From contig CM119372.1 in the NCBI GenBank assembly GCA_051294905.1, positions 34,970,001 to 35,034,000 of the forward strand: a stretch of DNA of 64,000 bases, written 5' to 3'. Below, one piece after another: positions 49,727 through 64,000 of this stretch. Each line of letters begins with the position of its first letter. Position 1 is the stretch's first letter. The position numbers and the translations under genes are program-made. The notes beneath the pieces are model-generated. The model was not told where the DNA came from. It ran no database searches and worked only from the letters and a program-made list of their open reading frames with translations. This DNA comes from Botryllus schlosseri. Lineage: Eukaryota.

Positions 49727-51829
49727 ATGTGCACTATCGTCGGTGGTTTGATTTAGTGCGTCCGCATGCAGGCCTGCTACCGTCGGCAGAAGCACTTTCG
49801 CCAAATAGTAACAATCTCCGAGTGTAATATTGTTTGTGTCTATGTAACTATTTGATGAAAACTTATGCCCGCGTCTGAAAAAATTGTGCTCGTTGCCATT
49901 GCCGAATCTGGGTATTTAGGTATGACTAGCGCATCCTGTAATTATAATTATTGCAGGTTTGCGGCATGTCGGTAATTTCGTTATCAGCGCAACCTCTGCG
50001 GCCGATTGTACAGCCCAATGAAATTGATCACTAGGCTACTATGTATTTCGCACAGCGTACTGATGCTGATTTCAGCAAACTATCGATCCATATTAGATGG
50101 GTAAATTCGACCTCATCGTTAGAAACGGTCGCGCGCTCTGGGTAACACCATCTCCTATCGCGATTTGACGACGAAATATACGTTCACCTTTTACAAATTA
50201 AAGTGCATTATTTACATCGATGAGGGCCGCAAGCCGCGTTTAAAATATTTTGTGAACCATTTTTGTGATAAATATTCTTGGAGCGTGACGTTGAACAGTG
50301 TTGTATTGTGAGTGCCCGCTAGTTGGAATTTACTGAAGTTCCCATAATGATAATCCTATTATGCTTTGCGAACGTATATAGGGAAATGCAGCAATGCAGT
50401 CGAAATCGATGTTTCAATCAGCAACCAATTGTCGCGATGCGAGCTACTCAATACTAAGTAAAAACTCATTGTGTTGGCGGTAAGGGATAATTACTTATTG
50501 GCGTTTGTAATATCATTCTTGTCTTTCTTTCGTGTTCCAGATTTGTCACGCCGTGTTACTGCTTAGTCCAGCGACGAATGCCAATCGCGCCCCCCGCGAT
50601 GACCTAATTTCGTAGTACAGCGGGAGATCGCGTCGCGTTGAATTGTGCGACATCCGTGCACAGACGAATCTCGCTAATTGGTCGCGGCCCCGCGCAAAAC
50701 TGACAATACGAGTTGTTGAATTGCATTACAACTGAAGATTAGCACCAGAATGGTCATTTCAAAATGACGAGGTTTTGCGTTTCAAAAGGAGGGGGTTTCG
50801 ACACCCTTCTTGCTACGCGCCTGCCGCCACCCCATGCAAAAATAAAAGTCGACGCCTATGACTATATATACTTGTATTTGAGAGCTACAATATTAAATCG
50901 TCATAATATTTCTTCATCGTATCATAAAGGATGATACTATCTAGTGTTACGGTTCACAACCTCACATGAACGTTACATAATATATGCTTAGTTTGGAATA
51001 CATTCATGTTAAAAATTAATAACTGGGTACAGTACTAAATTCAATGTGAGCAGATACATGCATCCCAATCTCAGTTGACTTACTCATTGTTACACAAACA
51101 CTAGGACAAAATCAAATACCATTAACTTCGCCGTATTGCCAGTCGCAGATATGAATTCAGGATGGCTCGAACCACAGAGTATGAGACCGTACCCGATTGT
51201 TGGTATAACAACCTTGATTTGACCCTGGATATACCACACACAATTATTGTATGATTTATTATAGTCTAATGGTCCTTGAGCGCGATTAAAGCGCGAAATA
51301 TTTCCAATACCAAAGTCTCGAAAAGACTGACTGCATTTTGACCTCTTACGAGGACCAATACTGCTGCAACCCAAACCCCAATCGGTGAGCTCGAAGGGTG
51401 CCCTAAATTATTTCGCTGAATGAACGTAAATTACACATGTTTTGACGACTCCCATCAGAAGAATACTCATAATTATAGAAAATAGAAATAGGCATTTCGG
51501 CGTCTGCCATCACCGCGCCACGATGCACGAAGACATATGGAGTTACGGTCAATATGGGACTCCGAGAAGTGTGTGAAAAAGATCGTCAGCGAGAAGACCT
51601 TAGCCGAAGAGGATTGCCCTTATGTTGACCGTAAACTTCGATGTATAAAAGTGTAATTGTCTATTGGTACTTAAGTCGCTCGTGCCGAATTACCATGTCG
51701 TCACAATCTGCACCCCACGGGACGAATAACATCCTTCAGAGAAAATTATATGCCAGTGCAGAAGTACTAATTTTGAATCGTGTGCTTACATTAGTTTAAT
51801 GCGTTAGTAGTTATTATAATCGCTCGTGG

Positions 51830-52110
51830 TGTGGCAGGGGTTCTTATGGGCCCGCTCGCATGCGGCTTCGAAAACTCGTGTTCGCACGGTAACCCTTTTG
51901 ACCCCCCTATCACTCGCACGCGGCTATTGCGTCTTATGGGCCCTCTCGCACGGTAACCCTTTACGGTATAGGAATCGCTTGCACGCGGCTTCGAAAGCCC
52001 GTGTTCGCGCGACCACCTTTCCCCTATCGCTCGCATTCGGCTATTGTGTCTTGAGGTCGCATGGTAAGCTTTCCAGGTATAGCACCCGCTCACACGCGGC
52101 TTCGTTGTAG
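51830..52110. repeat. GC-rich subterminal tandem repeat of element B (mirror at ~63265-63545)
   Basis: Repeated GCGGCTTCGAAAA..GTGTTCGC, GGTAACCCTTT and CCCCTATC.CTCGCA..CGGCTATTG. Confidence 0.85.
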
Positions 52111-53641
52111 GTATGTCGAACTTCGTATGGTGTTGAATATGTATGAAGTAGATTGATCACGTGATTTATCCTTAATGTTTATATTCCGAATTATTATATA
52201 TGACCGATTCGATTTAATCCTAACGTTTACGGTGATTGTGACATAATCTATCGTTATTCTTATGGGCGCGGCGGTGATTCGTACTTTCGGGTATAGGCTG
52301 CGGGCGGTATGTCATACTTTCAACAAAAATAGTGTGAAATAGTTTGCTAAATCTAGGAATCAGTCGCTTGGTGATATTTTGGTAATTAGTTTGCCACAGA
52401 GCCGGCGTAGACGGCGATTCGAATATCAACAATAACCACGCTCACAAAGTAACACTTCAAATAGGTGTGAAATATATTACAAACCCCGCGATCGCCGACA
52501 TGATAATGTCTCATACGTAGCCATCTTTCGTGACTTGGTGTTACAGGCATGCAGATCGCTCAGGCGGTGAAATTTTAGTAATCAGTTTGTCACAGAACTT
52601 GATTTCGCTGGTAAGATTTAATAAGTAACGAATAACAGAACCGTCGCAGACAGTGATTCGAATACCGACAAATTCTCACTTATTTCTGCTCTAACCCTAA
52701 TCCTTTGCGAAGTTAACTCTTATTCAAAAAGGTGTGAAATAATTTTTAAATCCTACGACCTCTCACATGGCAATGCTTCAGACATAGCGATCCCTCATGA
52801 TTTGGTGTTACAGACATACCGATCGCTCACAAGGTAATATTTCGATAATTAGTTTGGAACAGAGCCGTCGCAGACGGTGATTCAAAAACCAACAATTTGA
52901 CACATTCTGGTGGTCGCTATATGTTTTCACATCCTTGGAATAGTGGTCGAATTTAGTTGTGTGATAAGAATCATGAGAATATTCAATCAATGTGTTAATT
53001 TGTCAACTTGAAATGAAATTTACTACACAACTCAAGTTGATTCGTATCTTAATATGTTAATTCGGTAAAACTCTAATCATTTGAGAAATCCTTTTAACGC
53101 GATCTGTTGAATCGAACGTAACCTGAATATTACTGACGCCGACTTTCAGCCGCATCGGATTATTCACACATTCCGCGCCGCTGTTTTCACACCTATAGAA
53201 TCAATACCAACTAAGGGTGGAGGCCAATAAGCTGAGTAAAAACATCCTGGATTTTCGCTTAATCAGCGAGTTCCAAGATCTCCCGATTTAGAAGTAGATG
53301 ATCCGCACGCCAAAACATTGGATGTTCGTGCGAAGTTAGTTGATCTACAAATCCAGGATGTAGGACGCTTTTGCGTCAAAATGACGCAAATTGTAGTGAT
53401 CCGTGGAAGGTTGCCATGTCAACCCATCGACTTCGTAGTAAATATTGCTTTGGCAATGCTGATTGGAAATGTCGTCGATTTTGGTCGTGTCCTATGAATG
53501 CCGTCGTTTCCTAGGTGGACTCATGAAATTGACTTGAAGCCACTTTGCAGCTTTAATGCATATTACTCTGTAGTTTATTCACAGTTATAAGTTCTAAAGA
53601 CGGCATTGCAAACTGGTACTGTTGTTATTACTGTCTGTAGT

Positions 53642-54659
53642 ATGGATATTTTGGACATCGTAGATGGCAGTTCCAGTTCGGATGACGAGAATACAATTAT
53701 TGTGCCCAGGCATTACTTGGCAGACATATCGGACTCATTTGTAAAATAACCGGAAAAAGAATTCGTTGACCGCTACAGATTTTCCAAGGGAGCTACGGTA
53801 ATTCTATTGGACATGATTGAAGACAGCCCATGGTTGGATGTACGGTGCCAAGCTTTGCACCCCATGATGCAATTACTCTGTGCTCTCCGATTTTTTGCTA
53901 CGTTCATTTTTAACAAACAGATGCTGACTTGATTGGTGTAAGCCGGATAACTGCACGCCGAATCATCCACTGCATTTCTCGGGTATTATCAGAGAACAGA
54001 GAAAATTTATCCCACAATTGGATGATTCGTTACAAACAAAGAGTGATTTCTTTGACATAGGTGGAGTTCCAAATGTCATCGGTTGCATTGATGGTACCCA
54101 TATCCTAATAAAGTCCCCAGGTGGCTCTGTACCAGAAAAGTTTATCGTTGCAGGAAAGGATATTTTTCTTTGAACTGTCAAATGGAGTACAATGCCAAGA
54201 GAATACCGGTAGTGACTAATGCTGTTGTGAGATGGCAGGGAGTACTCATGACTCAAGAACTTTTTCAAACTCCAGATTAATATACGAGCTCGGCCAGAAA
54301 AAATACAATGGGATTTTGCTGGGAGACAGAGGCTATATGCTCTAAAAATGTACCTGATGACTCCATTAACAAATCCACAGGCTGCACAAGAAAAAAAATA
54401 CAGCTATATGCAATCAAAGACACGCGTGCTGATCGAGCAATGCTTTGGCATTCTCAAACACTGTTTCCAGATGTTGCTAATTCCTATGCGAATGCAAACC
54501 GAAAACACCACCCCGGCAATCATTGCGACAATATGTTTGCACAATTTTGCTACAAAAACCAATGAGCCAGTTCCTGATATTGCAGTTACTCCCGAGGAAG
54601 CTACGGATATAACATCTGAAGTTGGATACACTGACGCAATAGCCTATCTTGGAAAATAA
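53642..54659 (+). pseudogene. Harbinger (HARBI1-like) DDE transposase, degenerate
   Basis: EFVDRYRFSK, QLLCALRFFAT, VIGCIDGTHI, RKGYFSLNCQ, GSTHDSR, LLGDRGY, YLMTP and TRVLIEQCFGILK across frameshifts. Confidence 0.9.
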
Positions 54660-54991
54660 GATCAACACATATTTCTACTAATTATGTTTATTTTAAAATT
54701 TTAACGAACACAGTAAACCGTGTTGGTGTAAAAATAATAAAGGGAATGAAATGTGCATGACTTCGTGGAATGAAAGATTGAACTACAATTGCACTGTAGA
54801 TAATAAACAAAGAGCAGGTGTCCCATTATTTGTATTCAAATTGACAAATATTCATTGAAAAAATGTACCGAAATATTTGCACCGTCGACAATACCTATAA
54901 GGCGAGGAACACTTGGGCAGGCAGGCACAATGAAATATTATAAAGACGTGTTGCATTTCAAAAAATGTGCACCATCGATAATACCTATAAG

Positions 54992-55188
54992 CAATGTTCC
55001 CTCTAAGCTACTCACGTGCGTAAATGCGCAGCGCTGACATGGTCTCTGCGCACAGAAAATCCCAAGTTGCGCACGAAAAAATTCGAAGTGATGAATTTTT
55101 TTACAGACGTTTACGCACTGTTGTCCAAGAGTCTGCGTAGTGAGTTGCTGAGTGTGCGCAAACTCGTCGAAAATTAGAGGGAACATTG
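54992..55188. mobile_element. Short CAATGTTCCCTCTA MITE nested in the Harbinger
   Basis: TIRs present; TSD CCTATAAG / CCCATAAG (7/8). Confidence 0.85.
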
Positions 55189-55342
55189 CCCATAAGGCTA
55201 GAACCAGTTGGCAGGCAGGCACAATGAAATATTATGAAGAAACGTTGCTTTTCAGAAAATGCGTATTCGGCTATTTACATAACTTGACAGGAAGGCACAA
55301 TGAAATAAGTGAACAAAGAAATATTGCATTACAGATGTCACT

Positions 55343-57280
55343 AATTCCTCAATTGTCCAAGTTGTAATCTATATATTTCCATTTTTATCGCATGTTCTTC
55401 GATACGCATTTCGAATTCTTGCTTTCTGAAATATCTTTCTTCGTCTCTCATGTCTTTTCTTTCTTTGAGCTCCTCAATCTTGGAGACCATCAGTTCAATT
55501 CTCAGCTCATCGTTATTCTGAATTAAAAGAAGTTCATATTAACTCTGCGATGAGGTAGTAACCTATGATTAAACTAAAACTTGTATTAGGAAGCCAATCA
55601 CAGAGAAATCTTGGAAATTCTTCTTGCCTTGTTGGCTGATATTTTTTCCTCTAATGGTTGATATCAATACTCGGTCAGTCTCTAGTCATTAAAAACTTGT
55701 ATTCTGCAACCAGCTGATCACAAAGTGCAGAATTGGTAGTTGTCATTGTATTGTATTTGTATACTAGAGCCCGACTGATATTGTAGTTTTGGGCCGATAC
55801 CGACAAAACCAATATCTAACTCCTTCACCGATAACCACTATAGCCTATATTCAAATTGTGTGGAATAGCTTAAAATGCGCATTTGAAAAACTTCAGGGCA
55901 TCTATTTGAACAGCTTTACAGCCAATGCTATACTTGGAAATAAACCAGAAAGGCTGCATCAGGACACCTGTAAAGTGTAATATATGTGAAATATATCAAT
56001 ATTCTCAGTCTAGTGGTCAAAGATTATAGTTTATGGATTTCCTATCACCATGCTGTGACCTCACGAAAACTGCCCATATATATTCATTTCCAATTGCCGA
56101 TACCAATAATTCTTTTAAAGAGTGATATCGAGTCTATATTATCGGCAAACCGATATAATCGGTCAGGCTGCATTGTATACCATCTTATATCAATTGTTAC
56201 AGGATTGTAACTATGTGCATTGCACTGGTAATCAGCAATCTTTCGAACAGTCAAACACCATTTCCAACTCTGTCGTTCGCAGATACACTTCACTAGAAAA
56301 CTAAGTACAAAGTGGGAAATTTTTACATAACAATGGTTGAGGCAGTGGAGCAAAAGTTTGCCAAACTCTCCGAAACTGCGAGATTGTATATTTTAAAATA
56401 TCAACTCGACTTGAAATTCAAATGTGTATAAGCAACATACCAGGTGGCAGATCACTCATCTTTGTCACGCATGTTGACTGCGATTCCATGTAGCTTGTTT
56501 CTGAAAAAAATGTGAATGTTTCAGAAGGATTTGAGGCTATACGTATGTTTACACATGCACAATGCACAATTGCACATGCATATTTGCTAGTGATGGTGGA
56601 AAATACTGAAACTGATCATTTGACGAGTAGCAAAAAATCTCAATATAAAATCGCTGAATGCATGACAAGAACGTTTGATATCGTGAATGCATTCCCTTCA
56701 ATACACCACCGGGCAAGAATTCGATATAATATACATCTACACTCGTACAATTGATATGTTAGCAAAAAGTAGTGATGAAAATAACGAGAAGAGTTGCCTC
56801 TGACACGAACCAATCATCATCATGGGGAACACTTCTCGATGTGGTCAATGTATCGATCAAGTTCTCATTACTCTCTCGCAATATAACTTACATATGATTG
56901 ATTTTCTACAGTAACTACAGACAATACGGTGGAATCACTTTGTGTTGTTCAAGTGGCTGAACCTGTGCTGGTATGACAGCTATAACCAATAATTTACTCA
57001 AATGCGCCATATTATGGATATAATTAATGTCTACAAAGTTACCTTGAAATAAATAGCACCGTCACCGGGTCAGATACCATATCTTAAGTCACTCTTCCAA
57101 TGAAATGTTCTGAAAGACTTGTCATTTTCAGTTTTGTCACTTTTTCTTGTTTTGAAACAACCTTCAATTGCTGTTCTGTTCCTTTGCCATGTTTGGTGAT
57201 GTAGCATTTCACGGCTTGGTTGATTGTTTGCAATGCAAGAGAACGGCTAAACTCATTTATTACATAGTTTGTATGCAATT
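55343..57280 (-). pseudogene. Probable second Harbinger gene (Myb/SANT-like), degenerate and spliced
   Basis: Minus strand has a charged coiled-coil C-terminus (RDEERYFRKQEFEMRIEEHAIKMEIYRLQL, ~55343-55520) and GTEQQLK near 57170; convergent two-gene layout is typical of Harbingers. Confidence 0.45.
55765..56172. mobile_element. hAT MITE with CCGATA repeats nested in the Harbinger
   Basis: TAGAGCCCGACTGATAT...ATCGGTCAGGCTGCA; TSD TTGTATAC (55757-55764, 56173-56180). Confidence 0.8.
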
Positions 57281-60200
57281 ATCATAAATATTCTGTAATA
57301 ATATGATCATCAGTCAATAAGGAGAAGGACAATTGAGTACCGGTAACAAAATATCGCCAACATGCAATCTTCACTATCTTTATAACGAACCTCAGATAAT
57401 CAATTTCAATCTACAATGTCCTAACTATTACAAACCTCGTCAAATTTATATGCTTGTGTACCCTAATCCAGACTTTAATCCTGGTGGCGACCAGGATCAA
57501 GAAGCAGCAGTCTATACTCAGTCGATTATGGCAGAATCTTACTAATCTACCTTTCTGGTCCGCAGAAAATCCGGCAACGTGCAAAATCCCCAGATCTTTT
57601 ATTTGATCTATATTTTTGGCCTCCACCCTAACTCTAAAAGAATCAAGAATCACAAGTACGCACATTATACAGTATTGTATTTATCAACTTGAAATCAAGC
57701 TCTTAACAAAACCACGCATCTTATCACTTGCCAACGCTATCATGAAAAGCCTCGAATCCATAGTTATAAGAATGTTATAGTACGACGTCGTAATCCACTT
57801 GCGAGATGTTCTATAGGTAAATTCAGATCACCCAAAATGAAATATTTTGAGTTTGGTGTAGTGTGAATTGAAATAGGATTGACAAACATGACTGCCATCT
57901 TTTCCCAGTCCCATTTCGATGTTATACGCATATTGATTTGAAACAAGTAATGAAACATTACAACTCTACTCACGATCCGGCTTTCTGTTTGTCAAAGAGA
58001 CATTTTAACATCTTACCATACTCAAAAGAATTATTCACAACATTAACAAGTGTTTAAAATCTAGTTTTCACTTACTTGACTATATCACTACAACTCGCAA
58101 ACTTGAATTAATTCATCCTGATTGTATTCATATGACCGATAATTTTTATTCAACTGTAAAAGTCGTTACTAATCTATAACACAAAGTAATCAGTACTCGG
58201 TGCATACGACGAGATTTGAATACTAAGCCTATGATAGCAATTCGCGCAAGTGAATCTAAGACATCGGGCAGTGAGAAAATCTACACGGGGATGGTTATTA
58301 CCACATTGACTTACTACCTTATCCGACTTACTCATAGTAAAGTAGACACGATTTCGGTAATATACACAATCATTACAACTTTAAACTATATTAATCATTC
58401 TCGGTCGTATTCACATATCACAGACCTGTGTTTTTTATTCCTTCAGTAAAATGTAGTCGTATTAATTTGATGATAACGTGCACACGCAAGAAACAATACC
58501 GCGATTTTATAATTGATCACCTGACTTAAGGTACCAAAAAACATTACCGAGATTTTTATAAACTGGCCATATTACTCAACACATCTATCAATATCAGAGC
58601 ACAAGTCCAACACCAAAACAAAAGTACTTTTTAGTGTATTAAAAAACAAATCATTCGTCTTCAATTCGTGTTTTTTAGGATTTGTATTCAGAAATTTATT
58701 ACGAATGAGTTGTAACGAACTGACGAAAGAGTTGTAAAGCAAGCATTTTAGAAACAGCAGCATCATCATCATCATCTCGATTCGTGAATCTACCAAACAC
58801 AATCACGATCGATGTATTCAAATATATCACAGACGTATTACACTCTAGTAGAGTTGTCAACCTAAAAGTACACGCACACTCGATCCTCATTTTAACTGTG
58901 GGAGCGAAGTTTAGGAATCGCTTGCAATGACATATCCAACAACCCACACAAAACCTATTGTCGGAATCTGCGACATCGAATTGAAACATACGCACATTAC
59001 GCATTATGAAAATATCACTTTGGATATCGTAGTACCATTTTAAGTGTGGTAAGCTCTGTTTACACTCTCTATCGAACGTGTGAAATGTAAAACATTACGA
59101 GGTCACACTCTAAGACTTTGATCATCAAAAAGTGAATAGAAGTATCTTTACGGGATTGATTCTATTCAACCGGTCTTGGTTAATACAAAACTCATAACAA
59201 TAATAAACTCAAGTATGTGCTACACTGAAATCTAGAAAAACATGTTTGTATTGCTGTTCATAGTAGTGATATCGATTTGAACCTCTAGATAAATTGTCAT
59301 CATCTAACCAAACTAATGAAAATCGTCGTCAATTTGTATGATGTTCACTGAATGCATACTAGAACTATTTGTGCAACGCATACGATCAGAGAAATTGGAA
59401 GTTTTTCCATCGTCATTCGTCAAAGTAAATGTCGTCACAATACTCAGTCACTGAAAGACCATATACTTGTATGTGATTGAATCAGTGGTAATTACCTAGC
59501 TAAATCAAACCCCTAATAAATTTCACTCACTCATTGGATATTAAACAGCGTCGCCTAATCGGTGTGGATCGTTTTTCTAAATACAAATCATATCTGTTTA
59601 GCAGAAAACAATTTTCACTTACTCGGGTAATGAAACCAGTGTGCAATATCAATAAAAGATATTTTCCTCACACAAAAAACAATCAACTTCACTCAATATT
59701 CTCATAAAACGAAACTGTACAATGGCTTCATGTTTTTTGTATGACATGGAATTAATACCGATCGAAGTAACCGTATTGGAAATGACTTTCATACAAACAC
59801 ACTCTACAAGGTTAACATTCTCATCAATTCTATTGTGAACAATATATACTTCATGTGTTCTGGATTCATTTCGATATGGTTAAACATTCAACCTCGAAAG
59901 ATACGAATTGTCACACACTCAACTAATATCATACCAAATAGTTATTTACAACAACCAAGACACAGAAAATTTGTTTTGGCCGTTTCGATTTTTTTACTGG
60001 AGGTACTCATCACTTCGCTTAATACAATCTAGATTTAAACTCCATCGAACGTTTGGTGTCTATCGTTTTGCTGGATACGAATTATGTGAGTCTAACAGTA
60101 AACAATTTTTACTATCTTGGGTTATCAACTCAGTGTGTTAGCGGTCATTCAATATTTTTTAGTATCAGCTAGTTACTTTGTAGGATGCGAATGATCATCC

Positions 60201-63200
60201 TCACAACTCTTACAAAAGTACGAAGGATATTTACATCACACAAAGTAATCAACTTTACTCGATATCCTCACACTACGAAACTAAATGGTTGGTTAGACTC
60301 TACAAACTGTTTTTGATGTCACAAGAACTTTTTTACACGAATGGTCTCGCATCTAAATATTCAAATAATCCAACACACAACCATAGTACTTACAGAAATA
60401 TCATAGGCCTTGTAACAAAGTTGTATAAGTTGAATGTTTATCATAAGTCTTACACATTCATGATATCTGTCGAGTTCGACTTTTAGAAAATATTATATTG
60501 ATATCGATACATCTTTCAAAAACAAAAACTATGTTCACTGCTTGAGAGACCTATCAATGTCATCACAGTAATCTAGTTACGTCCACAAAAGAGTACATAT
60601 GTTTTCTAGTCACGGTCCTTACATCTTTCACACAAAACAATTTACTTGACTAACGAGAAGTGACGAGTTATCGAATGATTTTCCTTACACCAAAACAACT
60701 AGAAGGTGTAACCACATTAAAAACGTCGTTAACCTTTGTGTACCAGCTGTAAATCCCACAAGCAACAAGTTTCAAGAATCCAGTTATTAAAAAAAACGTT
60801 AAAGTGTTTCTCCTGCGCCAAGTCGTTATGTTGACGAAATCGTATATTGTAATATCATGATCGATTTGCATTCGTTGGTCACGAACTGTCACTACTCTAA
60901 ATAATTCTTTTTCACTCAAACACAAAAGTATACTTGTCACCATTCGTTTTCATCGAGCACGAGTTCAAGAAACTTACTTACTACGACATGAATTGTTATT
61001 TTTATGTTGTGTAAATAGGTAATAATTAATTTTAGTAACACTATATCAACGTCATCGAGTTGTGTGTATAGATGTACATGTGGTCTTGTGGTTCTAATCG
61101 AAGCATACAGCAGGGTCGAATGTGGAGTCTTCTCTATTGTACAGCAACTCGGTAATCGAAATGCATGCATTAACATTTGAACAACGATCTTGTTTCGTCA
61201 CGCGAAAAATATCTTCACTGTCGCGACACTCTGATACTCTGCACAAGATGTGTAAATCCTTTTCACACTCATAATAGTACACTAACGGGATACCGACATC
61301 AGGCGACAACGTTTAACAACATCACTGACACTGAACATACGATACAAGCGCAAAGTAGGCGTGGATGGTGCATTGGAATAAAAAACACAGGTCTGTGATA
61401 TGTGAATACGACCGAGAATGATTAATATAGTTTAAAGTTGTAATGATTGTGTATATTACCGAAATCGTGTCTACTTTGTGGTAATGTGGTAATAACAACC
61501 CCCGTGATGATTTTCTCACAGCCCGATGTCTTGGATTCACTTGCGCGAATTACTATCATAGGCTGAGTATTCAATTCTCGTCGTATGCACCGAGTAGCGA
61601 TTACTTTGTGTTATAGATTAGTAACGACTTTTACAGTTGAATAAAAATTATCGGTCATATGAATACAATCAGGATGAATTAATTCAAGTTTGCGAGTTGT
61701 AGTGATATAATCAAGTAAGTGAAAACTAGATTTTAAACACTTGTTAATGTTGTGAATAATTCTTTTGAGTATGGTAAGATGTTAAAATGTCTCTTTGACA
61801 AACAGAAAGCCGGATCGCGAATAGAGTTGTAATGTTTCATTACTTGTTTCAAATCAATATGCGTATAACATCGAAATGGGACTGGGGAAAGATGGTAGTC
61901 ATGTTTGTCAATCCTATTTCAATTCACAATACACCAAAGTCAAAATATTTCATTTTGGGTGATCTCAATTTACTTATAGAACATCTCGCAAGTGGATTAC
62001 GACGTCGTACTATAACCTTCTTAATAATATGGATTCGACGCTTTTCATGATAGCGTTGGCAAGTGATAAGATGCGTGGTTTTGTTGAGAGTTTGATTTCA
62101 AGTTGATAAATACAATACTGTATAATGTGCGTACTTGTGATTCTTGATTCTTTTAGGGTTAGTTGGTATTGATTCTATAGGTGTGAAAACAGCGGCGCGG
62201 AATGTGTGAACAATCCGATGCGGCTGAAAGTCGGCGTCAGTAATATTCAGGTTACGTTCGATTCAACAGATCGCGTTAAAAGGATTTCTCAAATGATTAG
62301 AGTTTTACCGAATTAACACATTAAGATACGAATCAAATTGAGTTGTGTAGTAAATTTCATTTCAAGTTGACAAATTAACACATTGATTGAATATTCTCAT
62401 GATTCTTATCACTTAACTAAAGTCGACCACTATTCCAAGGATATGAAAACATATAGCGACCACCAGAATGTGTCAAATTGTTGGTTTTTGAATCACCGTC
62501 TGCGACGGCTCCGTTCCAAACTAATTACCGAAATATTACCTTGTGAGCGATCGGTATGTCTGTAACACCAAATCATGAGGGATCGCTATGTCTGAAGCAT
62601 TACCATGTGAGAGGTCGTAGGATTTTAAAATTATTTCACACCTTTTTGAATAAGAGTTGACTTCGCAAAGGATTAGGGTTAGAGCAGAAATAAGTGAGAA
62701 TTTGTCGGTATTCGAATCACCGTCTGCGACGGTTCTGTTATTGGTTACTTTTCAAATCTTACCAGCGAAATCAAGTTCCGTGACAAACTGATTAGTAAAA
62801 TTTCACCGCCTGAGCGATCGGCATGCCTGTAACACCAAGTCACGAAAGATGGCTACGTATGTGACATTATCATGTCGGCGATCGCGGGGTTTGTAATATA
62901 TTTCACACCTATTTGAAGTGTTACTTTGTGAGCGTGGTTATTGTTGATATTCGAATCGCCGTCTACGCCGGCTCTGTGGCAAACTAATTACCAAAATATT
63001 ACCAAGCGACTGATTCCTAGATTTAGCAAACTATTTCACACCCTTTTTGTTGAAATTATGACATACCCCCCGCAGCCTATACCCGAAAGTACGAATCACC
63101 GCCGCGCCCATAAGAATAACGATATATTATGTCACAATCACCGTAAACGTTAGGATTAACTCGAATCGGTCATATATATTAATTTGGAATATACACATTA

Positions 63201-64000
63201 AGGATCAATCACGTGATCAATCTACTTGATACATATTCAACACCATACGAAGTTCGACATACCAACAACGAAGCCGCGTGGGAGCGGGTGCTATACCTGA
63301 AAGGGTTACCATGCGACCTCAAGACACAATAGCCGCATGCGAGCGATAGGGGGTCGAAAAAGGTGGTCCTTCGAACACGGGTTTTCGAAGCCACGTGCAA
63401 GCGATTCCTATACCGAAAAGGGTTACCGTGCGAGAGGGCCCATAAGACGCAATAGCCGCGTGCGAGTGATAGGGGGGTCAAAAGGGTTACCGTGCGAACA
63501 CGAGTTTTCGAAGCCGCGTGCGAGCGGGCCCATAAGAACCCCTGCCACACCACGAGCGATTATAATAACTACTTACGTTTATGCGTTTCACTATCTTTTG
63601 ACTATATAGCGGACAAGAGGTAACAAATTAACAACATGTAACGAATTTATTGTACCGACGGGCACGCCCGAATATGTTTGATTAATAATTACGCGGCCTT
63701 CATTTTCATATACAACAGCTCCCTCAGCGCTACTGGTAAATCTGATTACGTGAGTTGAGAGGATAAAAAGTTTATAGCGTCGTATATATGCAAATACCAG
63801 CGATTCATTCATGCATTATAGAAAATGTTGGCGCCTAGGGCGACCAGGTCACACAAACTTTGCTCACAATCGATATCACGGTCAGCGTTCTTGAGGGCGA
63901 AGCCCTCAGAAGTTTGATTTATCACGCTATCGGTGCGCAAGACAATCGTACTTCAGGGGGGCTGACGAAGTGCTATTACGGTCCTCCCTCTTACCCATTG

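Follow-up and report, generated by a model that had tools for sequence, protein, structure and literature searches.

Mavericks, also called Polintons and reportedly treated by Kapitonov and Jurka in 2006, are thought to be protein-primed, capsid-packaged viruses, neither step having, to our knowledge, been observed directly for animal elements. The protein-primed linear plasmids pGKL1/2 of yeast are said to have yielded hairpin or palindromic deletion derivatives in work of Kikuchi and colleagues from 1985. In these derivatives, one end of the replicon is duplicated in inverted orientation by copy-back; they are cytoplasmic plasmids and are not integrated. Helper-dependent adenovirus genomes shorter than ~75% of wild-type length rearrange according to one review, which describes a 15-kb vector packaged as direct and inverted dimers (PMC4189039). 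For vertebrate Mavericks, Barreat and Katzourakis (2021; PMC8097293) give 5'-(AGT)2//(ACT)2-3' with a 6-bp target-site duplication as the commonest end type and a range of 46-1447 bp for the terminal inverted repeats (TIRs). Here, an element termed element B was analyzed in a 64,000-bp window of the Botryllus schlosseri genome (GCA_051294905.1, contig CM119372.1, positions 34,970,001 to 35,034,000; positions of element B are those of this window), which an earlier note made from the letters alone had described as a possible non-autonomous satellite of a Maverick-like virus or transposon. We consider it very probable (roughly 0.85) that element B is an old, damaged member of a high-copy, gene-less, palindromic and non-autonomous Maverick/Polinton family. 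Element B has a 6-bp duplication and 5'-AG...CT-3' ends of the (AGT)2//(ACT)2 type, and its termini and subterminal sequence are common to a Maverick of the same genome that encodes PolB and integrase. No PolB, integrase, packaging ATPase, protease or capsid gene was found in it by tblastn or among 10 open reading frames (ORFs) from its arms and presumed “core”, none of which gave an above-cut-off Pfam match, Maverick-gene domains included. With these cis features and without the genes, element B is filed as a non-autonomous Maverick/Polinton.

The gene-bearing relative is an 18,263-bp copy at C1:5923771-5942033, which starts and ends with AGTAGTGTAGTAGATCGCTCG and has AGTAGT ends together with the ATCGNTCG signature. 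Its TIRs are 442 bp long and 99.5% identical, a second inverted block lies at positions 603-798, and the copy is flanked by a perfect GCCGAG/GCCGAG duplication. One ORF of 1214 aa matches DNA_pol_B_2 above the cut-off (E 5.5e-8) and another of 359 aa matches rve (E 2.7e-16) together with Chromo; these domain matches identify the two as a protein-primed PolB and an rve+chromo integrase. As a lead only, the 432-aa ORF is a candidate capsid protein, its nearest protein-atlas clusters having the PF21738 double-jelly-roll domain in 14-30% of their members. The check proposed in the earlier note, a search for larger elements that have these ends and genes for PolB or integrase, was thereby positive, and the suggestion of a non-autonomous Maverick-like satellite is borne out by a copy that combines the same terminus type and 6-bp duplication with both genes. 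As each genome search scored the best 40 candidates, genome counts given here are lower bounds. PolB matches were scored for 38 of 437 genome candidates; identity in the aligned portions was 92-95%, and 33 of these matches were free of internal stops. A six-frame search of the genome with the PF03175 family returned no matches, a false negative because the 1214-aa ORF passes the PF03175 cut-off and the 38 PolB loci match it; this type of search is insensitive for the present Maverick polymerase.

Element B and the palindromes described below match the 18,263-bp copy only in its first ~880-975 bp and last ~600 bp, the homology being patchy and, for element B, covering the first ~880 bp (to position 882), while tblastn with the ORFs of the 18,263-bp copy matched only TIR pseudo-frames. 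Positions 799-975 of the 18,263-bp copy have a match in each arm of the C1, C3 and C2 palindromes (~80-180 bp, 69-80% identity, compared with one putative helper copy) but none at the right end of the 18,263-bp copy itself. This distribution tentatively suggests that each palindrome consists of two left ends in head-to-head orientation.

The terminus pattern AGTAGT-N7-ATCGNTCG was found genome-wide at least 992 times in forward and 979 times in reverse orientation, as opposed to 4 and 11 times for a reversed control, and thus does not arise by chance; there are ~1000 terminus pairs in the genome. The first 599 bp of element B gave 62 genome matches (2394 candidates). Among the 100 termini listed, all on contig 1, 36 adjacent plus/minus pairs were present and 28 termini were unpaired. 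The median pair spacing was 13.9 kb, with the following distribution:
Below 12.5 kb: 5 of 36 pairs
12.5-15.5 kb: 23 of 36 pairs
16.5-19 kb: 6 of 36 pairs
Above 19 kb: 2 of 36 pairs
Nine of these 100 termini start with (AGT)3 instead of (AGT)2, and the seven variable bases after the AGT repeats are mostly degenerate AGT- or TAG-like triplets.

Eight copies were examined besides element B, namely five complete palindromes, the outer host copy of one of them, the gene-bearing copy and a rearranged copy. The complete palindromes have arms of 5.6-6.9 kb that are 98.9-99.9% identical and loops of 0.2-1.1 kb:
C3:3874609-3887574, 12,966 bp; arms 6.4 kb, 98.9% identical; loop 233 bp; duplication AACACG/AACACA
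C2:21469843-21482181, 12,339 bp; arms 5.6 kb, 99.9% identical; loop 1137 bp; duplication CACACA/CACACA
Nested copy on contig 9, 13,993 bp; arms ~6.5 kb, 99.8% identical; loop 888 bp; duplication CACGAC/CACGAC
C1:144232-158972, 14,741 bp; arms 6.9 kb, 99.7% identical; loop 955 bp; duplication CTTGTT/CTTGTT
C13:10747041-10760931, 13,891 bp; arms 6.5 kb, 99.6% identical; loop 964 bp; duplication AACGCA/AACGCA
At C9:508498-532163, a complete 14-kb palindrome has inserted close to the middle of an older one, which has the 21-nt terminus of element B, arms ~98% alike and a GTCGCC/GTCGCC duplication. The rearranged copy at 7.489-7.506 Mb of contig 9, whose arms are 74-86% alike piecewise, was not counted for duplications or arm identity. 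AGTAGT ends and a 6-bp duplication were found in 8/8 copies (element B and seven others), which answers the question raised in the earlier note about termini and duplications elsewhere in the genome and allowed an origin from a MULE, P or hAT element to be set aside. Six of the eight duplications are perfect and two have one mismatch; leaving out element B, six are perfect and one has a single mismatch.

No ORF longer than 202 aa is present in the palindromes, and none of 48 ORFs (≥75 aa) from four complete palindromes gave an above-cut-off Pfam match or a transposase domain. A 135-aa ORF at the arm/loop boundary of C1:144232-158972 (L040:6821-7225, + strand) has a weak, below-cut-off match to the RING-finger family zf-C3HC4_3 (E 0.0048); its cysteine-rich C-terminal stretch recurs in a loop ORF of the C3 copy, and no comparable ORF of ≥90 aa is listed for the C13 copy. 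Different copies are 74-87% identical to one another, compared with 98.9-99.9% between the arms within a copy, and a ~0.9-kb loop with the same boundaries is homologous in three diverged palindromes. Arms that are alike within copies and a loop shared among diverged copies indicate that the palindromic form is inherited and that the arms evolve in concert. At C7:18001041-18039984, the terminal region occurs four times on one strand at intervals of 5.5-8 kb and then once on the opposite strand, an arrangement resembling a local tandem array or a cluster of partial family copies.

Element B proper extends from 51806 to 63573. The interval of 51800..63579 in the earlier note included the flanking hexamers TGCGTT and TACGTT, and both the hexamers and the insertion itself stood up to analysis. 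The element opens at 51806 with AGTAGTTATTATAATCGCTCG and is closed at 63573 by the exact reverse complement, its ends reading AGTAGT...ACTACT, i.e., (AGT)2...(ACT)2. Both window flanks are contiguous at 8 of 11 paralogous loci of the host repeat, seven of these eight empty sites having exactly one TACGTT/TGCGTT-like hexamer between the flanks and the eighth a slightly divergent one; at the other three loci, the right flank is absent or displaced. It was thus confirmed, as the note had claimed, that element B is a real insertion into the host repeat with a 6-bp duplication, and since the empty sites have a single hexamer, the G/A difference between the two duplications is a later mutation. The host repeat (51300-51805 / 63574-64000) is very abundant, with 4434 first-look candidates, and is non-coding here; its paralogues begin near CAGTGGTTCTTAACC. 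The parts of the locus are as follows:
51800-51805, no strand: left copy of the target-site duplication, TGCGTT (single TACGTT or TGCGTT at paralogous empty sites)
51806-51826, + strand: terminal 21-nt signature AGTAGT-N7-ATCGCTCG with the (AGT)2 end motif; an identical 21-mer is at the right end
51806-53214, + strand: outer part of the left arm, from the inverted-repeat search, with repeats at 51853-52104 and modules at 52395-52903
53215-57628, + strand: nested, decayed PIF/Harbinger with TAA duplication (53212-53214 / 57629-57631), foreign to the Maverick-type element
57629-58441, + strand: inner part of the left arm with surviving mirror partner, 96-100% complementary to 61375-62162
58442-61345, + strand: former “core”, continuation of the left arm with a mirror partner that was probably deleted, collinear with arm interiors of complete palindromes
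61346-61374, no strand: 29-bp junction or filler at the putative deletion breakpoint, only in element B among scored matches
61375-63573, - strand: right arm of 2.2 kb, mirroring 51806-53214 and 57629-58441 (inverted-repeat search, gapped BLAST)
63574-63579, no strand: right copy of the target-site duplication, TACGTT, one transition off the left copy
The inverted-repeat search paired the arms in four blocks:
52021-53214 with 62159-63352: 1194 nt, 97%
57628-58307 with 61483-62162: 680 nt, 96%
51802-52020 with 63359-63577: 219 nt, 96%
58339-58441 with 61375-61477: 103 nt, 100%
After removal of the Harbinger, element B measures ~7.35 kb with arms of ~2.2 kb each, in agreement with the ~7.3 kb and ~4.4 kb of inverted repeat estimated previously; the ungapped blocks are 96-100% identical and gapped BLAST gave 95.1% over 2229 columns.

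Between the arms, the earlier note had seen a 2.9-kb core without a long ORF. The statement on ORFs holds, as the longest stop-to-stop ORF in 58442-61374 has 131 aa (no ORF in element B exceeds 146 aa). The core itself does not, since this stretch is arm interior whose mirror appears to have been deleted. In complete palindromes, segments of 58442-61374 recur in both arms, collinear with the arm interior, and a genome search with the “core” found it as plus/minus inverted pairs in at least 9 further copies among the best 40 scored. When a probe over the boundary between “core” and right arm was used, 38 of 39 other scored matches stopped at 61340-61353, nearly all of them at 61345, and the remaining one started at 61375; among scored matches, which is the sense in which the junction is unique, the boundary is spanned only by element B itself. 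In element B, no counterpart was found of the other copies' loops or of the innermost 300 bp of their arms. By comparison with the complete palindromes, the “core” is shown to be left-arm interior whose mirror copy was, to judge from these alignments, lost, and the 2.2-kb TIRs are most plausibly remnants of arms that measure 5.6-6.9 kb in the complete palindromes. The C13 copy (13.9 kb) has the exact 21-nt terminus of element B; with an interior only 75-86% like element B, it was unsuitable as an exact template for mapping the deletion.

The simplest reading of the locus is the insertion of a ~14-kb palindrome followed later by a central deletion of ~6.5 kb. After insertion, the arms would have drifted 3-5% apart, one base of the duplication would have mutated and the Harbinger would have landed in the left arm. 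The deletion would then have taken the loop together with the innermost stretch of the left arm and ~4 kb from the inner side of the right arm, leaving ~5.1 kb of left arm, the 29-bp filler and 2.2 kb of right arm. Long palindromes usually become stable by losing their centre of symmetry. Arm divergence in the copies counted rises together with other signs of age:
Four copies: arm divergence 0.1-0.4%; perfect duplications
C3 copy: arm divergence 1.1%; mismatched duplication
Outer contig 9 copy: arm divergence ~2%; nested insertion
Element B: arm divergence 3-5%; mismatched duplication, nested Harbinger, deletion
Across these seven copies, the trend is suggestive and agrees with arms that start out identical at insertion and diverge later.

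Other explanations of element B were weighed against its reading as a damaged palindromic Maverick derivative. One takes it for a monomer, ancestral or of an alternative form, whose 2.2-kb TIRs enclose a genuinely unique core and from which full palindromes arose later. Its arms are the most diverged seen (95-97%) and hence old, and the closest “core” match (91%, on contig 9) has no mirror partner among scored matches, both of which speak for a monomer. However, at least 9 other copies have the “core” segment twice, once per arm and collinear with the arm interior, and the junction is spanned by no other scored copy. Moreover, paired copies with the 21-nt terminus of element B (at most one mismatch) are 13.7-14.6 kb long in five cases and 8.6 kb in one, and the homologous loop of three diverged palindromes implies that the palindromic form itself is old, which together make a monomer improbable. 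That the asymmetry is an assembly artefact, a complete palindrome having partly collapsed, is scarcely credible. Palindromes are hard to assemble, and no bridging record was found among the public contigs listed over the junction, which are mostly short repeat unitigs. Yet the arms of element B differ by 3-5% and only the left one contains the Harbinger, so they are distinguishable and were assembled separately; five other palindromes with near-identical arms (98.9-99.9%) were assembled whole in the same genome, and the best DNA run has non-zero depth in the 61342-61375 bin.

The long, internally repeated and gene-less arms of element B, most of whose length is without similarity to the 18,263-bp Maverick, would also suit a foldback-type cut-and-paste transposon (Drosophila FB, Galileo, or a MULE or P derivative) that was moved by an unrelated DDE transposase and has Maverick-like ends by chance. 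P and FB/MULE elements make duplications of 7-9 bp, and assignment to the foldback, P or MULE type calls for a duplication of 7-10 bp and a cognate DDE transposase. Against this stand the 6-bp duplications in 8/8 copies, a 21-nt signature at the termini that is shared, along with ~0.9 kb of homologous subterminal sequence, with an element encoding PolB and rve, and the lack of any transposase-like ORF among the 48 ORFs of four complete palindromes. We therefore regard a foldback origin as very unlikely.

With element B read as a non-autonomous Maverick, shared cis sequences and many insertions with their own duplications suggest that the family is mobilized in trans by Maverick proteins. The protein-primed polymerase of the helper would start on the AGT repeat at either end of a family member. 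Adenovirus replication has a jumping-back start, and start-site slippage in jumping-back of this type would yield the (AGT)2/(AGT)3 variation. The palindromic family may then represent a left-end/left-end inverted dimer of a satellite genome, born by copy-back. Its displaced strand would snap back by panhandle pairing, which would equalize the arms as in adenovirus inverted terminal repeats, and the retroviral-type integrase of the helper would insert the product with a 6-bp staggered cut that gives the duplication. The median palindrome of 13.9 kb compares with 18.3 kb for the 18,263-bp copy (ratio 0.76), and a capsid-filling limit may explain both the dimer form and the narrow size range. 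Taken as a whole, the proposal that the ~1000 palindromes are natural inverted-dimer satellites of an active polintovirus, in which a ~6.5-kb gene-less left-end replicon is copied back, kept symmetrical by panhandle pairing and selected by the capsid for about three quarters of helper length, is a tentative one that we think less likely than not.

Known systems resemble the palindromic family in part. With Mavericks/Polintons it shares the end motif, the 6-bp duplication, TIRs and the terminal and subterminal sequence of a PolB/integrase copy in the same genome. In contrast to them, it is gene-less, has arms of 5.6-6.9 kb accounting for at least ~90% of its length, as against the 46-1447 bp reported for vertebrate TIRs (PMC8097293), and has ~1000 terminus pairs, element B being a truncated relic. 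Like the helper-dependent adenovirus dimers, as far as the cited review describes them (PMC4189039), the members are gene-less and keep ends and cis signals, and they would be linear genomes that depend on a protein-primed helper and form inverted dimers near ~75% or more of helper length. The adenovirus dimers are laboratory products seen in virions, whereas the palindromic family is integrated, inherited and diversified and is known here from chromosomal DNA. Foldback elements (Drosophila FB; Galileo of the P superfamily, in the account of PMC3573991) also have very long, repetitive inverted arms, little or no coding sequence and many defective copies, but the element B family differs from these in its 6-bp duplication and in having the AGTAGT ends of a PolB/integrase element; a search of its ORFs gave no transposase partner. 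With the yeast pGKL1/2 derivatives, the family would have in common an inverted, copy-back duplication of a single end of a protein-primed replicon, its members being integrated and the yeast forms cytoplasmic.

Several observations weigh against the interpretation of element B and its relatives as Maverick satellites. Only ~1 kb of each 5.6-6.9-kb arm resembles the 18,263-bp copy, and termini that match the pattern flank only one of four PolB loci in the listed part of contig 1, which means that most Maverick lineages here have other subterminal sequences. The helper relationship is deduced from shared cis sequences alone, and the size argument draws on 36 pairs, all of one contig, and on the length of a single helper copy. 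The link between divergence and age comes from seven copies, and gene conversion in place could also keep arms alike.

Overall, the palindromic family is large and young, keeps only Maverick ends, consistently has the layout of an inverted dimer and centres in size on roughly three quarters of the helper, and it gives testable predictions on the replication and packaging of Mavericks. Extrapolated from 36 sampled pairs and ~985 terminus pairs, it may fill ~2% of the 495-Mb genome and would then be a major genome component, one that might be broken up or wrongly classed as foldback DNA in standard repeat annotation. If the satellite-dimer interpretation is true, the family would be the first genomic footprint of Mavericks that replicate in the manner of adenovirus and package their DNA, and the host genome would contain more satellite than helper DNA. 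Literature searches, with Repbase and subscription journals outside their scope, gave no description of palindromic non-autonomous Mavericks. What the present analysis adds is the decay path of one copy, tentative evidence for left-end/left-end joining, concerted arm evolution across subfamilies and the size comparison with adenovirus dimers; the path shown by element B comprises arm divergence, a nested insertion and a lost centre of symmetry.

Rfam and tRNA scans of 51000-64000 gave no match, and one RNA run had 0 reads on the window, an outcome of no weight as regards expression. The Harbinger in the left arm of element B has 13-bp TIRs (GGGTGGAGGCCAA...TTGGCCTCCACCC) and a TAA duplication, and carries a DDE_Tnp_4 fragment (E 4.6e-7) in broken frames, as seen when two Harbinger ORFs were compared with Pfam. 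GC-rich sequence and ~230-bp tandem modules had been described for the TIRs, and both are visible. GC content is 49-53% in the terminal ~300 bp versus 31-44% across the rest of element B, the same ~300 bp contain degenerate 52-64/111-bp repeats, and three modules at 52395-52903 have a spacing of 224-267 bp and 67-83% identity. Neither these modules nor the terminal repeats were called by Tandem Repeats Finder, which marks the modules as degenerate rather than regular tandem repeats. Over 57300-63300, GC skew is steadily negative in the left-arm interior and positive in the right arm; such mirrored skew is expected of a palindrome and implies that the arm sequence itself is strand-asymmetric.

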